A stretch of 64,000 nt of DNA from Candidatus Marinacidobacterales bacterium (GTDB lineage: Bacteria; Acidobacteriota; Vicinamibacteria; Marinacidobacterales; SMYC01): contig CBDCYI010000004.1 in assembly GCA_965224085.1 (NCBI GenBank), positions 576,001-640,000 on the forward strand. Reading direction: 5' to 3'. The notes beneath the pieces are model-generated. The model was not told the DNA's origin and searched no databases. It saw nothing but the letters and a program-made list of their open reading frames with translations. Below are positions 7,695-11,731 of the stretch, piece after piece. A program made the position numbers and the translations under genes. The first letter of the stretch is position 1. Every line of letters starts with the position of its first letter.

Positions 7695-8620
7695 CAGGAC
7701 TCTCCTGGATGCTCGCAGCTTTCATCATCCAACCGCAGACCCCTCTTTTCAGAACAACGACCGAGATCGTCCAAGTCGACGTCTATGTCGGCCGCGACGG
7801 CCGGGCGGTGCTCGGGCTCGGCGCATCGGATTTCGAGCTGTTCGAGGACGGCGAGCGCCAAGAGCTCGATCTCGTCGACGCTCAAAACATTCCGGTACAC
7901 ATCGCCCTCGTGCTCGACACGAGCGGCAGCGTCGCGGGCATACGCCTGAGTCATTTGCGCGAGGCAGCGATTCAGCTACTGGACGATCTCGACGATGAAG
8001 ACGAAGCCGCCCTCATTTCGTTCTCGCATCACTTGAAGCGGGACGCCGAGCTGATGCGAGACAAAGACCAAGTGCGGGACGCGATCGAGGCGGTCGAGGC
8101 TTACGGTGCCACCGCGTGGCACGATGCACTTTTCGTCGGGCTCAAGACGGTCGAGAACGTCGAGCACCGCCCCATGGTGTTGCTCTTCACGGATGGAATC
8201 GACACTTACAGCTGGCTCCGCGAAGAGCAAATGCTTCCGCTCGTCGAGCAGTCTCAGGCTGTCATCTACGCCATTGGACGAAAAGAGCGTCTGCCGAAGT
8301 TCGGTCGGGGGACGCTTCGCCATTCAGCTTTAGCGCGGGACCGCGCGCGCCGGGCTGCCCGCGACGCCAACGCCGAACGGACCCGTCTTCTTCGCAAGCT
8401 CACAGAGACGAGCGGCGGACGTTTCATCGAGACCGACACGACCGAGAATCTAGGACCGATCTTCTCGACGATCCTCGCCGAGATAAAGACACGCTATCTG
8501 TTGTCCTATCGTCCGCGGGAGCCGATCCACGAGGGGTGGCATACCCTCTCGGTCAAAGTCAACGTCCGCGGCGTCGAGGTCCATGCGCGGCGGGGATACT
8601 TTTATGAAAAGAAGCGCTAG
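7691..8620 (+). CDS. VWA domain protein (acidobacterial VWFA-related type)
   Basis: FRTTTEIVQVDV N-terminus, MIDAS DTSGS, LFTDGID, and ARRGYF C-terminus. Confidence 0.9.
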   Translation: MTGLSWMLAAFIIQPQTPLFRTTTEIVQVDVYVGRDGRAVLGLGASDFELFEDGERQELDLVDAQNIPVHIALVLDTSGSVAGIRLSHLREAAIQLLDDLDDEDEAALISFSHHLKRDAELMRDKDQVRDAIEAVEAYGATAWHDALFVGLKTVENVEHRPMVLLFTDGIDTYSWLREEQMLPLVEQSQAVIYAIGRKERLPKFGRGTLRHSALARDRARRAARDANAERTRLLRKLTETSGGRFIETDTTENLGPIFSTILAEIKTRYLLSYRPREPIHEGWHTLSVKVNVRGVEVHARRGYFYEKKR

Positions 8621-9136
8621 CTTTCTAGTCTTCCTGGTGCTGACGCTCGACGCGTCCGCGGGGCCGAAAGAGACCGCTCTCGCGTGGCTCGCGGAGCAGC
8701 ACGATCATCTGAACGACGTGTCCGAAGCCCTTTGGGCAATGCCGGAGCCGCCGCACGCGGAGCGGTGCTCGCCGTGAAGCGAGCAAACGATGAGCACGGC
8801 TTTCGAGGCACGGTGCGCTTTTTTCGGCGCTCCCGCTGAAGAGATTTATCACGGCGGCGCCTACATGGCGCGGACGACGTGGATGCACTTTTGTTCTGGC
8901 ATCCTTCCGCCGTCACGACCGTGATCACGAGGAGCGGACTCGCGATGGACTCTATCCGCTTCGTCTTCGACGGTCTCGCCTCGGACGCCACCGACGCAGC
9001 AGCCAAAGGCGTGAGCGCGCTCGCCGCAGCCTATGAGCTTAGAGAGTTCGACACCGCGCGCGGAGACGCGATCTATGAATCCCCGCTGCCCGCCGAGCTC
9101 GGACCGTTCGAATGCTTGAAGCCTCGGCCCCGTTAG
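8604..9136 (+). pseudogene. M20/AbgB-like amidohydrolase relic with internal deletions and frameshifts
   Basis: Fragments LWAMPEPPHAE, GTVRFF..AEE, LFWHPS and YESPLP lie in different frames within only about 530 bp. Confidence 0.6.
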
Positions 9137-9180
9137 TCAAGCGAAAGACGGAACCACGCGAACAAGATCGGCTGGCACAC

Positions 9181-9213
9181 AAAAAAAAGGGAGGGGCACT
9201 CACCCCCCCCCTC
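9181..9213 (-). terminator. Rho-independent terminator of the Lys-rich microprotein gene
   Basis: Minus strand reads a G-run stem, TGAGTG loop, CCCCTCCC, then T8. Confidence 0.8.
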
Positions 9214-9234
9214 TTATTACCCCTGAGGAAGTCC

Positions 9235-9312
9235 CTACTTTTTCTTTGCAGCTTTTTTCTTTGCAGCCTTCTTCTTGGTGGTCTTTTTCTTAGCTGCCTT
9301 TTTTTTCGCCAT
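9235..9312 (-). CDS. 25-aa Lys/Ala-rich histone-H1-tail-like microprotein MAKKKAAKKKTTKKKAAKKKAAKKK
   Basis: Translated by hand. AGGAGGTGA Shine-Dalgarno upstream, plus its own promoter and terminator. Confidence 0.8.
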   Translation of the reverse strand: MAKKKAAKKKTTKKKAAKKKAAKKK

Positions 9313-9415
9313 TACTCATCACCTCCTCTCTTCATGGATTAGAGCGTCACGCCGCCCCAATGAAGACACGCAACACAAAGTTCTGCTCGTATGAGAAGTT
9401 GATTGCACTAGCTGT

Positions 9416-9444
9416 AGGGTAAAGAGGTATAAGAGTGGTGTCAA
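9416..9444 (-). promoter_or_regulatory. Sigma70-type promoter for the microprotein gene
   Basis: TTGACA-17 nt-TACCCT on the minus strand. Confidence 0.7.
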
Positions 9445-9459
9445 GCGGTTTTTGGTGAT

Positions 9460-10761
9460 TTAGAGGTCAACCCACTCGACTCCATTCGGGTACGCGAACG
9501 CCGTTCGCGACTTTTTCTTCATCGTGATGCTGTATCCGGGATGATCGGGAGCGCGATACCTTCCTTTTTCGACGACGACGGGTGCTTCGAAGTGCTCATG
9601 CAAGTGATCGACGTATTCGATCATGCGTTCTTTCATCGATCCGCTCACACAAACGTAGTCGAAGAGAGAAAGATGCTGGACGTGCTCGCAAAGACCGACG
9701 CCTCCAGCGTGCGGGCAGACTGGAACGCCGTGCTTCGCCGCCATGAGAAGCACTGCAAGCACTTCGTTCACGCCACCGAGGCGGCAACTATCGATCTGAC
9801 AAAACGCGATCGCCTCCGCTTGGAGGAGTTGTTTGAACATGACGCGGTTATGCGCATGCTCACCCGTCGCGACGCCAATGGGTTTGACCGCCCGCGCAAT
9901 TGTCGCGTGCCCGAGAACGTCGTCCGGGCTCGTCGGCTCTTCGATCCATAGCGGACGAAAAGTCTCGAGACGCTTCATCCACGAGATCGCGTCGTCGACA
10001 TCCCAGATTTGATTGGCGTCCATCATGAGTGCGTGGTCCCAGCCGATCTCATCGCGGATGAGCGCGGCGCGGCGGATGTCGTCGTCAAGGTCTCTCCCGA
10101 CCTTCATCTTGAACGCTGTCCAGCCCTCGGCGATCGCTTCTTTACACAAACGTCGGATCTTGTCATCGCTATAGCCCATCCAGCCGACCGACGTGTTGTA
10201 GGCAGGGTACCCATCCGCGAGCACAGTCTTGATACGCTCCCGTCGCGTCGGCTCGAGCGCACTCAGAAGCGTAAGCGCTTCCTCCGGCGTGACGCAATCC
10301 GTGATGTAGCGAAAATCGATGGCGCGCACGATCTCTTCGGGCGCCATGCCGCAAAGCAGCTGCCAGAGCGGCTTTTCCGCGACTTTCGCCTGGAGGTCCC
10401 AGAGCGCGTTGACGATGGCGGCCGTCGCCAAATGGACGACGCCTTTCTCCGGTCCGAGCCAGCGAAGCTGGCTGTCCCCGGTGATCTCACGCCAGAACGC
10501 GCCCCACTCCGACGTGATCGACTCGAGCTCTTGCCCGACGATCCTCGTCGCGAGCGGGTCGATCGCTTCGACGCAAAGGTCGTTGCCGCGGCCGATAGTA
10601 AAGGTCAGTCCGTGGCCCTCGTGCCCGTCGGGGTGGTCCGTCTCGAAAACGACATAGGCGGCAGAGTAGTCCGGGTCGGGATTCATCGCGTCGGAGCCAT
10701 CGGAGTCTCGCGAGGTCGGGAAACGAATGTCTTCGGTCGTAAAGCCGGTGATCCGCGTCAT
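9460..10761 (-). CDS. L-fuconate dehydratase-like enolase-superfamily enzyme
   Basis: DIRFPTS..DGSDAMNPDPDYSAAY, FKMKVG, DANQ, WIEEPTSPDD and VCPHAGGVGLCE motifs. Confidence 0.88.
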   Translation of the reverse strand: MTRITGFTTEDIRFPTSRDSDGSDAMNPDPDYSAAYVVFETDHPDGHEGHGLTFTIGRGNDLCVEAIDPLATRIVGQELESITSEWGAFWREITGDSQLRWLGPEKGVVHLATAAIVNALWDLQAKVAEKPLWQLLCGMAPEEIVRAIDFRYITDCVTPEEALTLLSALEPTRRERIKTVLADGYPAYNTSVGWMGYSDDKIRRLCKEAIAEGWTAFKMKVGRDLDDDIRRAALIRDEIGWDHALMMDANQIWDVDDAISWMKRLETFRPLWIEEPTSPDDVLGHATIARAVKPIGVATGEHAHNRVMFKQLLQAEAIAFCQIDSCRLGGVNEVLAVLLMAAKHGVPVCPHAGGVGLCEHVQHLSLFDYVCVSGSMKERMIEYVDHLHEHFEAPVVVEKGRYRAPDHPGYSITMKKKSRTAFAYPNGVEWVDL

Positions 10762-11731
10762 GCCAGCTCCACTCTTCGATGGCGCCATCGATCGATCGCG
10801 ACCGCGGCGACGATGATCGTGCCCGTCACGATTTCTTGAACCCAGTTCGGAAGCCCCATCTGGGAAGTGCCCGCTCGAATAACCGTCATGATGAACGCGC
10901 CGACGAGTGTGCCGGTAACGGTTCCCTCTCCCCCCGATAGGCTTCCGCCTCCGATAACGACTGCAGCAATGACGTCGAGCTCGAGCCCCACCGCAACGGT
11001 GGGGTCCCCCACCGTGAGGCGTGAAAACTGGAGAACACCGGTAAGGCCCGCGAGCGCGCCCGTCAAAGTGTAGACGGTGACCTTCACCCTCTCGACATGA
11101 ACACCGCAAAGTCGCGCGGTCTTCTCGTTCGAACCGATCGAGAAGATGTGCGCGCCGAGCCTTGTGTAGCGTAGGACGACGGCCGTCGCGAGTGCTAAAA
11201 GAGCAAGCACCCACACTCCTGGAGGCACCAACATCCAGCGGCGGTCCGGAGGCAAAGAAGATAGAAGCTCGACGAGCCATGTGATCGGAGCATCGACTTT
11301 TTGTTCCCTGCCGAGGCCTTTCGCGACCCCGCGCACGAGAAGCAGCATGCCGAGGGTCACGATGAACGGCGCCACCTTCAACCGGGTGATGAGTGTCCCG
11401 CTCGTGAGTCCCGTCAGAGACCCGGCCAACATCGCCATGAGGATCGCCGCCGCGGGTCCGCCACCCCCGTTGAGCACGAGCGCCACGACGACCGACGTCA
11501 TCGCCACGATCGAGCCCACCGAAAGATCGATGCCGCCGAGAATGATGACGAGCGTCATACCGAGCGCCGCGGTGCCGACGATGGCGGTCTGCCTGGCGAT
11601 GGTCTCGAGCGTACGGATCGACGTAAAGCTATCGGGGCCGATGAGCGCAAAGAAGACATAGACGAGAACGAGGCCGATGAGAGGTCCGAGAGTCGAGAGC
11701 CCGAGGCTCGCCGACTTTCCACATGTCTCGC

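Follow-up and report, generated by a model that had tools for sequence, protein, structure and literature searches.

A conserved oligo-lysine micro-gene candidate with an anti-ribosome-binding-site motif in a family of Marinacidobacterales

Small basic ribosomal proteins of about 25–35 residues bind rRNA and are often overlooked by gene callers; bS22, bL37 and bTHX, and eL41 of archaea and eukaryotes, are tiny products dominated by Lys and Arg. At the larger end are chlamydial Hc2 and the Burkholderia-type H1-like protein, of about 150–240 aa, which contain Lys/Ala-rich, pentamer-like repeats in strain-variable number, as is the case for Hc2, and are presumed to bind DNA electrostatically. ScvA of Coxiella burnetii is a basic DNA-binding peptide of about 30 aa that belongs to the small-cell variant and is rich in Arg and Gln and non-repetitive. 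Two further systems resemble the locus described here in layout. The dual-function small RNAs SgrS/SgrT, RNAIII/hld and SR1/SR1P combine a short transcript from its own promoter with a tiny ORF and a conserved segment that pairs with ribosome-binding sites. The amino-acid attenuator leader peptides of the trpL, hisL and pheL type consist of a Shine-Dalgarno (SD) sequence, a short ORF enriched in one residue and a terminator directly behind it.

The locus considered here lies on the minus strand of a 64,000-nt stretch of a Candidatus Marinacidobacterales genome (the window). It starts with a -35-like hexamer, TTGACA (9439..9444), that occupies the same place in all 22 related units, followed after 17 nt by a -10-like hexamer, TACCCT (9416..9421), and then by the conserved sequence ACAGCTAGTG (9415..9406), near which transcription likely starts. 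The 5' leader of about 100 nt (9313..9410) is predicted to fold into a hairpin (9366..9329) that ends at the SD sequence, with UCUUCAU/AUGAAGA arms enclosing a GGGGCG/CGCUCU inner stem. The SD sequence, AGGAGGTGA (9319..9327), has a GGAGG core 9 nt ahead of the ATG. The ORF (9235..9312) begins with ATG at 9312 and consists of 25 codons (9312..9238) and a TAG stop (9237..9235). It contains runs of up to 8 A and encodes the peptide MAKKKAAKKKTTKKKAAKKKAAKKK, in which 15 of the 25 residues are Lys, and it is delineated by its sequence, codon statistics, paralog comparison and a 15-nt imperfect repeat. Behind the stop codon is an anti-SD-like 3' motif, GGACTTCCTCAGGGGTA (9218..9234), with the core CTTCCTCAGGGG at 9231..9220, and then an intrinsic terminator (9181..9215; placed at 9215..9184 by the terminator scan) with a G-rich/C-rich stem of 14 pairs, a 4-nt loop and T8. 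The promoter-like hexamers, leader, SD, poly-Lys ORF and terminator listed in an earlier note on this DNA are thus all present on the minus strand, and the gene had indeed been missed by ORF calling, as that note claimed; it was never annotated.

The unit has relatives. A second copy is found on contig C5 of the same genome. It too combines a TTGACA promoter with a strong SD, this 3' motif and a terminator, and its neighbours are a divergent tgt on one side and a convergent HAD hydrolase gene on the other. When the whole 6.87-Mb genome was scanned for ORFs of 10–80 aa with at least 30% Lys, 91 matches were obtained, among which the window ORF and its paralog, with 60% and 62% Lys, are followed by a next-highest share of 45%. 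A pattern search based on the 3' motif recovered a total of 22 units. They come from 12 of the 19 genomes of family f1 and represent seven of its ten genera, with two units in each of ten genomes and one in each of two, and no control matches; reversed controls of the degenerate N-terminal and 3' patterns likewise gave no matches. The exact 3'-motif pattern is absent in the seven other family genomes (genera g2, g5 and g9), where divergent versions are possible. With one mismatch allowed, the 3' motif had a single match (G155, one mismatch) in 400 other genomes of the phylum, against one control match; in the genomes covered, the motif-defined unit was seen only in family f1. Chance does not account for the unit, and the earlier note, which had made its case depend on conservation in relatives, is borne out on this point because the unit is conserved there.

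A profile HMM built from 20 family peptides and run over the order recovered 8 of the 18 other family-f1 genomes versus 11 of 18 by the 3' pattern. It is insensitive, since it found fewer family genomes, and it was not used for claims on distribution. Outside the family it found mostly long K-rich frames of 169–585 aa, as well as one 63-aa frame (G030) and two matches in a 74-aa frame (G052). The long K-rich ORFs of a sister family in the same order, with an open frame of 169–585 aa, represent a different kind of gene.

The units fall into two paralog types. Type A, to which the window copy belongs, has a leader that measures 105–107 nt from a conserved ACA through the start codon in 12 of 12 units and lies downstream of a gene of the enolase superfamily, while type B has a structured leader of 221–229 nt and stands alone. 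Every one of the 22 units has a GGAGG or GGGGG core ahead of an ATG or GTG that is in frame with a stop preceding the 3' motif, giving ORFs of 60 to 186 nt. The repeat number differs between genomes, and in the alignment the terminator stem differs in sequence between units with its pairing kept. The second paralog, the enolase-superfamily neighbour, the leader structures and the invariant anti-SD-like 3' motif were all missing from the earlier note.

A promoter scan of the window did not call the TTGACA-17-TACCCT site, as its -10 hexamer matches the consensus at just three of six positions. The support for a promoter lies instead in conservation across the related units: in 22 of 22, TTGACA, a spacer of 17–18 nt and a hexamer of the form TAnnCT are aligned, with ACA(T/G)CTAG coming next. 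The -10 hexamer is TACCCT in 11 of the 12 type-A units and TACGCT in the other, and TATGCT or TATCCT in type B. In the window, the upstream gene (9460..10800, minus strand) belongs by Pfam to the mandelate racemase/muconate lactonizing group of the enolase superfamily (MR_MLE_C, E 1.4e-65; MR_MLE_N, E 1.8e-11; Pfam run on the window copy only), and its stop codon is 15 nt ahead of the -35 hexamer. The largest upstream ORF is on the strand of the unit in all 11 of the 12 type-A loci examined (L024 was left out), and conserved C-terminal coding sequence of the upstream gene is visible in the type-A comparisons. A terminator scan found none between this gene and the window unit on the unit's strand, so the type-A copy is not fully insulated. 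The complete stand-alone transcription unit proposed earlier is therefore upheld as far as its own promoter-like element and terminator go, but the window copy is not closed off upstream. No gene follows on the same strand, the largest downstream ORF being on the opposite strand in the 21 of 22 loci examined (10 type B and 11 type A, without L024). According to Pfam, applied to one locus of each type, the downstream genes encode an M20 peptidase (type A, L031) and a HAD hydrolase (type B, L030), and the gene upstream of L030 is a divergent tgt.

The peptides of the 22 units are 20–62 aa long and are made exclusively of K, A, T, R, V, S and G. Their 597 codons comprise 368 for Lys, 159 for Ala, 49 for Thr, nine for Arg, seven for Val, three for Ser and two for Gly, with none for Glu. 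Among the all-purine codons, AAG occurs 242 times, AAA 126, AGA seven, AGG twice and GGA once, and GAA and GAG do not occur. Ala codons are unrestricted at their third base (GCT 65, GCA 47, GCC 26, GCG 21). Tandem Repeats Finder describes the window ORF as a repeat with a period of 15 nt and 4.4 copies that match at 76%, and the repeat is thus imperfect at the DNA level. Openness of the frame by itself proves little, because frame +1 is almost equally open, with four stops in 597 codons. The two paralogs of the genome are separated by 12 synonymous codon differences, as against two Ala/Thr swaps and one codon indel. These differences, together with the 368 Lys, nine Arg and zero Glu codons, strengthen the earlier argument that mixed codons reflect selection on the peptide. 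The gene is real as a conserved feature of these genomes, and the selection acting on it is consistent with coding.

The unit is also present in RNA libraries. Three sponge metatranscriptome runs from one study each yielded one contig of 158–167 nt that is identical, with no differences, to the stretch 9221..9389 (9223–9380 in X1, 9221–9385 in X2 and 9223–9389 in X3), at depths of 4.6, 11.8 and 25.6, whereas the flanks at 8900–9220 (320 nt) and 9390–9900 (510 nt) have no cover in these runs. A further contig, in one run, contains the type-B ribosome-binding sequence. As assembled contigs from a single study, these data are silent on strand, transcript ends and expression level, and some DNA may be carried along in RNA libraries; contigs over the unit between bare flanks nonetheless agree with the transcript that the earlier note had called for. 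Contig depth, which cannot rank expression, is the sole hint that the transcript or peptide might be abundant. In another run, X5, which was guessed to be RNA, short matches of 90–95% with loose ends came from other organisms and were discarded.

The core CTTYCTCAGGGG is located 3 nt past the stop codon in 22 of 22 units by construction, since it was the search key, and the alignment of the units shows that the 3' motif is conserved beyond this key. The motif CTTCCTCAGGGG shows complementarity to the ribosome-binding region of its own unit. For all 10 type-B units the calculated energy of the duplex between SD region and 3' motif lies at -16.3 to -20.1 kcal/mol, and for all 12 type-A units at -11.1 to -13.8 kcal/mol, with a mean z of -2.69 (200 shuffles each). 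Each half of the motif has a partner in type B, CCCCU with AGGGG and GAGGAGG(CG) with (CG)ACUUCCUC. Covariation is almost nil, because both pairing partners are nearly invariant. Complementarity between an anti-SD-like motif and an SD is, in part, trivial.

The leaders of the two types differ in structure. The consensus fold of the type-B leader has 54 pairs, 11 of them with compensatory changes, and in local folds of 45 nt the SD core is fully paired in eight of ten units, with four of its five bases paired in the other two. The consensus fold of the type-A leader has 12 pairs at -5.3 kcal/mol, and the alignment shows sequence changes in its inner stem with pairing kept in L023, L026 and L012. 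In the minimum-energy local fold the SD core is almost unpaired in the window copy and in three of the four other copies from its genus (L018, L027 and L029), and partly paired in L031. Occlusion of the SD by the leader is therefore not a general property of type A and is not claimed for the window copy, where the core stays almost open.

How these units relate to known families was addressed by several searches. The 25- and 30-aa peptides do not match HC2 (PF07382) or hist_H1_lk_Burk (NF038053) at E up to 10, and a 62-aa relative reaches 9.8 bits (E 1.1, cut-off 40) and 9.9 bits (E 0.83, cut-off 80), respectively. The NCBIfam library, which presumably holds models for bS22, bL37 and bTHX, gave no match to small ribosomal proteins for the 25-, 30- and 62-aa peptides at E up to 10. 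No usable Pfam family matches the peptides of the unit, and no solved structure in the PDB matches at E up to 10. Against Rfam 15, the best match for positions 8800–9800 of the window is Bp1_162 (23.3 bits versus a threshold of 50, E 0.24), and 15 loci, including the type-B locus L030, have no match at gathering score. Ten related peptides, including some of 60–68 aa, are absent from about 15 billion predicted proteins. The ESM Atlas returned only unnamed clusters of 74–87 aa from Planctomycetota, with low recognition, and a homology search with a 41-aa natural relative gave one match among 477 candidates (P0001, 54 aa, E 0.21); the composition of the peptides makes such sequence searches uninformative.

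Set beside the systems described above, the family has a character of its own. The ribosomal proteins bS22, bL37 and bTHX have defined, non-repetitive sequences, while the window family is a (KKKxx)n repeat of variable length for which ribosome association is hypothetical. The H1-like proteins share its type of repeat, but the family peptides are 20–62 aa long and consist of the repeat alone. ScvA is, like the window peptide, stand-alone, very short, highly basic and a proposed nucleic-acid binder, a likeness for which no homology is claimed. The conserved segment of the window unit, unlike that of the dual-function small RNAs, complements the unit's own ribosome-binding site, and the unit has no Rfam match. 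In contrast to attenuator leaders, the units have no structural genes behind them in the same orientation, and the ORFs are far richer in one residue and vary in length. bS22 and bL37 are named among the literature titles and abstracts listed, none of which describes genes such as these. One MAKKK match in the literature (PMC10585065) is a different peptide from Streptomyces, basic, non-repetitive and of 32 aa.

We lean slightly towards a genuine micro-gene that codes for a protein. Its own sigma-70-like promoter would give a short mRNA of about 230 nt, and in the window copy read-through from the upstream enolase-superfamily gene probably contributes as well. The strong SD would then direct synthesis of a 25-residue, uniformly cationic (KKKxx)5 peptide that lacks a signal sequence as well as acidic and bulky residues. 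Such a peptide would most likely work in the cytoplasm as a small polycation whose partners, judged from its composition, would be polyanions, for example rRNA or other RNA, DNA or polyphosphate. Its role might be that of a counter-ion, a compaction factor or a stabiliser, in the manner of a proteinaceous polyamine or a minimal H1-tail. The earlier note's H1-tail or protamine-like condenser, or binder of ribosomes or polyphosphate, thus survives as a polycation deduced from composition, but the tests with H1-like HMMs fail. The apparent gate would be translation initiation: pyrimidine-rich partners, one in the leader and the other the invariant CUUCCUCAGGGG 3 nt past the stop codon, could close the ribosome-binding region and loop out the purine-only, unstructured ORF, and the SD might be freed only by some signal or by ongoing translation.

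The same features may be read in other ways. The unit could be mainly a regulatory small RNA, perhaps with a dual function, in which (AAR)n forms an (ARN)n platform for the distal face of Hfq, CUUCCUCAGGGG acts as a seed in trans for SD regions and the peptide is incidental. That the 3' motif is more conserved across genera than the ORF or the terminator stem, and is complementary to SD-type sequences, speaks for such an RNA, as do the shortness of the transcript, the promoter-like element and terminator that it has to itself, and its occurrence in RNA libraries. The A-A-R periodicity with its free third base, in which AGA is tolerated and GAA is not, fits the ARN rules of the Hfq distal face, and Hfq is encoded in the genome (PF17209 twice, at 90.3 and 27.1 bits). 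AAR or AGR makes up 377 of the 597 codons and the terminator has T8, features for which Lys coding accounts just as well. In every unit a strong SD stands at a suitable distance from ATG or GTG, which is more in keeping with translation, and the spacers between Lys blocks come in whole codons and are drawn from A, T, V, S, G and R alone, none of the 229 non-Lys codons being acidic, aromatic or large hydrophobic. SD-led polyK ORFs also occur, by record title, in CPR bacteria and DPANN archaea, and no Rfam family matches. We regard a predominantly regulatory RNA as unlikely, though it remains a rival.

It could also be the act of translation that matters, the poly-Lys ORF serving as a sensor or decoy. 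The speed of ribosomes over 15 Lys codons, some of them within slippery A-runs, would report charged tRNA-Lys or translation capacity and set the stability or conformation of the RNA, for instance through exposure of the 3' motif. The attenuator-like layout and the runs of up to eight A invite this idea, and a terminating ribosome would cover the 3' motif because the motif starts 3 nt past the stop. Yet there is nothing to attenuate in cis, since all 21 loci examined, of 22, lack a following gene in the same orientation, and the folds made reveal no evident alternative antiterminator. The ORF is almost all purine and lacks internal pairing. On our own reading, CUUCCUC has a possible partner in the G-rich 5' arm of the terminator of type A, a pairing that is unconvincing in type B. 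ORF length varies three-fold (20–62 codons) while non-Lys positions remain small residues, and this restricted composition despite the variation in length points to constraint on the product, which leaves a translation sensor rather improbable. The last alternative, a functionless, purine-rich slippage repeat that arose by chance in the 3' untranslated region of the enolase-superfamily gene, can appeal to the detected 15-nt tandem repeat, its varying number between genomes and the lack of a terminator-like site behind the upstream gene. It is already contradicted by the conservation data, namely a second copy of the same architecture next to tgt and promoter, leader length, SD, start, stop and 3' motif kept in seven genera. 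The repeats match too poorly, with differences at synonymous positions, and the RNA contigs are on the unit rather than on the upstream gene, so that this origin has a vanishingly small probability.

Similar ORFs are found far beyond the family. In a cross-phylum scan of one collection, run without a reversed-pattern control, at least 79 K-rich ORFs of up to 70 aa that start with MAKKKAAKKK were found among at least 117 loci from many phyla. An SD core precedes 65 of the at least 79 listed ORFs, a terminator-like hairpin occurs within 120 nt of 39 of them, and three of 1694 residues are acidic. By record title, these look-alikes belong to Acidobacteriota, Methylomirabilota/Rokubacteria, Verrucomicrobiota (Udaeobacter), Planctomycetota, Nitrospirota, Bdellovibrionota, Patescibacteria and DPANN archaea. 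As a tentative proposal, and one that we consider doubtful, SD-led oligo-lysine micro-ORFs of 11–70 codons might represent a widespread, unannotated class of ribosomally made polycations, or “protein polyamines”, carried on lineage-specific structured mRNAs. In family f1, this would be a closed-loop mRNA with an anti-RBS element and a riboswitch-like 220-nt leader that together control a burst of synthesis.

The mRNA offers two candidates for new regulatory RNA elements, the structured leader of about 220 nt and the invariant 3' anti-RBS motif. The peptide, if made, would rank among the simplest known gene products with a function, being an oligo-lysine chain and nothing more, with nearly 60% Lys, of which selection keeps two copies per genome. 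Since the ten related peptides are missing even from the billions of predicted proteins searched, the class would be invisible to current annotation. Its look-alikes in many phyla, including minimal-genome lineages, suggest a general, overlooked supply of polycations to ribosomes, nucleoids or polyphosphate.

The oligo-lysine unit lies on the minus strand of the window. A −35-like TTGACA (9444..9439) is separated by a 17-nt spacer from a −10-like TACCCT (9421..9416), which is followed by the conserved ACAGCTAGTG and a leader of approximately 100 nt, with the Shine–Dalgarno (SD) sequence AGGAGGTGA at 9327..9319. The ORF begins with an ATG at 9312 and ends with a TAG at 9237..9235, and its 25 codons translate to MAKKKAAKKKTTKKKAAKKKAAKKK. 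After the stop come the sequence GGACTTCCTCAGGGGTA (9234..9218) and a terminator of 14 pairs and T8 (9215..9184), identified by a terminator scan. The elements of the minus-strand unit described in the earlier note can thus all be read in the sequence. The promoter scan did not call the promoter, because its −10 hexamer has only three of the six consensus bases. According to Tandem Repeats Finder, the unit has a 15-nt period (4.4 copies, 76% match). The region matches no Rfam family at threshold (top match 23.3 bits, threshold 50).

The window (G000:C4:576001-640000) belongs to a genome of 6.87 Mb with 60.3% G+C, G000, in which a whole-genome scan finds 91 ORFs of 10–80 aa with at least 30% Lys. 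Two of these are outliers: the window ORF (60% Lys) and MAKKKAAKKKAKKKATKKKAAKKK on contig C5 (62%), the next being 45%. The paralog on C5 combines TTGACA-17-TATGCT with a leader of approximately 220 nt, the SD GGAGAGGAGG and a terminator, and shares with the window unit the motif CGACTTCCTCAGGGGTA after the stop codon. By manual count, 12 codon positions differ synonymously between the two ORFs, which are further distinguished by two Ala/Thr swaps and an indel of one codon.

A degenerate pattern for the peptide N-terminus, MAKKKAAKKK, has eight sites in five of the 41 genomes of the order, the window's included, and its reversed control none. The 3' pattern KK-stop-NNN-CTTYCTCAGGGG has 22 sites (control 0) in 12 of the 19 genomes of the window's family, covering seven of its ten genera; of these 12 genomes, ten have a pair of sites and two a single one, and the exact pattern is absent from the other seven of the family. 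With one mismatch allowed, 400 other genomes of the phylum yield a single match, as does the control, so that among the genomes searched, the motif-defined unit is found in this family only. On these sequence comparisons, the window unit and its relatives are more than chance.

The 22 units fall into two types. The 12 type A units, including that of the window, lie directly after the stop of a gene of the mandelate-racemase/enolase superfamily (identified by Pfam in the window copy) on the same strand. Their promoter-like element consists of TTGACA, 17–18 nt, TACCCT (TACGCT once) and then ACA(T/G)CTAGTG, and their leaders are 105–107 nt long. The ten type B units lie between other genes and have TTGACA, then TATGCT or TATCCT, then ACATCTAGTATG, with leaders of 221–229 nt. 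The largest flanking ORFs were compared at 21 of the 22 loci, leaving out L024. In eight of the ten type B loci, the largest upstream ORF runs on the opposite strand; the other two, L013 and L014, have a longer upstream open frame on the unit's own strand. Downstream, all 21 loci examined have their largest ORF on the opposite strand; with the same strand thus empty, a role as leader of a downstream operon is ruled out. Pfam identities were obtained for one locus per type: the C5 paralog (L030, type B) is flanked by a divergent tgt (queuine tRNA-ribosyltransferase) upstream and a convergent HAD hydrolase downstream, and type A locus L031 by an M20 peptidase downstream.

In the relatives, the place of window 8583–9136 (plus strand) is taken by an intact convergent frame of 430–473 aa, the M20 peptidase in L031. 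The window has only short fragments there, with frames of 64, 44 and 85 aa, and the gene downstream of its unit therefore looks degraded in G000. The first fragment has a signal-peptide-like start; Pfam matches nothing in the two fragments it was run on.

A sequencing-run search returned RNA libraries matching 12–13% of the words sampled from a 1001-nt stretch, and three sponge metatranscriptome runs from one study were compared with window 8900–9900. Each run contains one contig, of 158, 165 or 167 nt, identical to window 9223–9380, 9221–9385 and 9223–9389, at depths of 4.6, 11.8 and 25.6. No contig in these runs falls on 8900–9220 or on 9390–9900, and the second of these stretches takes in the upstream gene's 3' end. 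A 126-nt contig with the type B ribosome-binding sequence as its loose end is also present in one run. These are assembled contigs from a single study, from which strand, ends and level cannot be read; as evidence for discrete and relatively abundant RNAs from both paralogs, they are moderate.

G000 also has other Lys-rich frames. An identical 20-nt upstream sequence with the same 11-codon frame (MLGTKKGKKLG) occurs at no fewer than 13 places on C4, C5, C9 and C11; a mobile element or dispersed repeat with no relation to the oligo-lysine unit is the probable explanation. An identical 29-codon Lys/Ala/Glu-rich frame with the same upstream sequence, found at C4:~1586737, C5:~1957464 and a third, minus-strand C5 site, probably lies inside a repeated element. 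In the sister family f3 (G032, G034, G040, G053 and others), long frames of 169–585 aa are full of KKKxx-type repeats; one genus has many of them (matches in 13 of its 16 genomes). From their sequence, they may be H1-like proteins.

A single scan of a species-genome collection with the MAKKKAAKKK pattern, run without the reversed control, matches at least 117 loci. Among the matches listed, 83 loci have a complete ORF of up to 70 aa, and 79 of these ORFs are at least 45% Lys. In 65 of these 79 listed K-rich ORFs an SD core lies within 20 nt, and in 39 a terminator-like hairpin lies within 120 nt; only three of their 1694 residues are acidic. The titles of the matches listed name Methylomirabilota/Rokubacteria, Udaeobacter, Vicinamibacterales, Planctomycetota, Nitrospirota, Bdellovibrionales, Patescibacteria and Nanoarchaeota/Woesearchaeota. 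Recurrent peptides among them are a 12-aa form (at least nine loci) and two 17-aa forms (at least eight and at least three). By record titles, which cover 80 of the at least 117 loci, the 12-aa form is attributed mainly to Methylomirabilota/Rokubacteria, the 17-aa forms to Udaeobacter and relatives, and 27–45-aa forms ending in KKR to Vicinamibacterales. Among the matches listed, the conserved 3' structure differs from lineage to lineage, and the sequence is so low in complexity that homology and convergence cannot be told apart. Ten such peptides (30–68 aa) have no match in approximately 15 billion predicted proteins.

Some lineages have tandem pairs of polyK micro-ORFs, each with its own SD; the loci noted are L092, L103 and L167 (Rokubacteria-type), L084 (archaeal) and L152. 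A Cys-rich tail follows the Lys run in the second ORF of L084 and in the ORF itself of L152. At L068, L072, L079, L091, L094, L098, L123, L129, L133, L142, L150 and L160 (Udaeobacter and other Verrucomicrobiota, where titles are given), a 17-codon polyK ORF precedes a conserved two-hairpin 3' region, with SD-like and anti-SD-like terminator arms (GGGAGGAG / TTCCTCCC).

The 25- and 30-aa peptides match nothing in Pfam or NCBIfam, and the 62-aa relative has only sub-threshold HC2 and H1-like matches; the PDB has no match at E up to 10, and the Atlas only unnamed Planctomycetota clusters. The closest parallels in function are the small basic ribosomal proteins, such as bS22 and bL37, and H1-like Lys/Ala repeat proteins, with membership in either group not supported. 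No description of such genes was found in the titles and abstracts that literature searches listed.

The type B leader has a consensus fold of 54 pairs (−34.6 kcal/mol), 11 with compensatory changes; besides two domains it has a small helix in which CCCCU is base-paired to the SD. When 45-nt stretches are folded locally, eight of the ten units have every base of the SD core paired, and the other two have four of its five. This leader is a conserved structured RNA (C5:1319350-1319730 in L030, and L010, L013–L017, L019, L021 and L028) that matches nothing in Rfam at gathering score. An SD-masking helix and the leader's last helix compete, an arrangement that resembles a riboswitch expression platform. 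The type A consensus is weak (12 pairs, −5.3 kcal/mol); in the window copy and three of four other copies of its genus, a hairpin (9366..9329 in the window) ends just before the SD, which is almost open.

Duplex energies show complementarity between the invariant 3' motif and the ribosome-binding region. The type B duplex joins CCCCU...GAGGAGG(CG) to (CG)ACUUCCUC-AGGGG at −16.3 to −20.1 kcal/mol; the type A duplex has 8 bp and −11.1 to −13.8 kcal/mol. Compared with 200 shuffles per unit, the SD/3'-motif duplex has a mean z-score of −2.69. Such complementarity suggests a closed mRNA form, with the purine-only ORF looped out and the SD masked. Covariation is no test of this form, since both partners are nearly invariant.

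In all 22 units, the start codon is preceded by a GGAGG or GGGGG core and is in frame with the stop that comes before the 3' motif. The start is ATG in 19 units and GTG in two (L016, L025); L018 has both, and its ATG was taken. The peptides, of 20–62 aa, all begin with M-A-(A)-K and end with KKK. Their 597 codons encode 368 K, 159 A, 49 T, 9 R, 7 V, 3 S and 2 G, and no acidic, aromatic or large hydrophobic residue. Among all-purine codons, AAG (242), AAA (126), AGA (7), AGG (2) and GGA (1) are used and GAA/GAG never; the third base of Ala codons is free to vary, and ORF lengths always differ by whole codons. This codon and length pattern is what selection for a peptide of Lys and small residues predicts. 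Two points call for caution: frame +1 is nearly as open, with four stops in 597 codons, and the A-A-R periodicity would be equally expected of an (ARN)n Hfq site, Hfq being encoded in G000. Together with the paralog, the orthologs and the RNA contigs, the codon and length pattern supports the earlier note's proposal of a real, overlooked and selected micro-gene.

The main rival is a regulatory or dual-function small RNA. We consider this rival rather unlikely, and lean slightly towards a translated oligo-lysine polycation that would bind cellular polyanions, with its initiation gated by masking of the SD.
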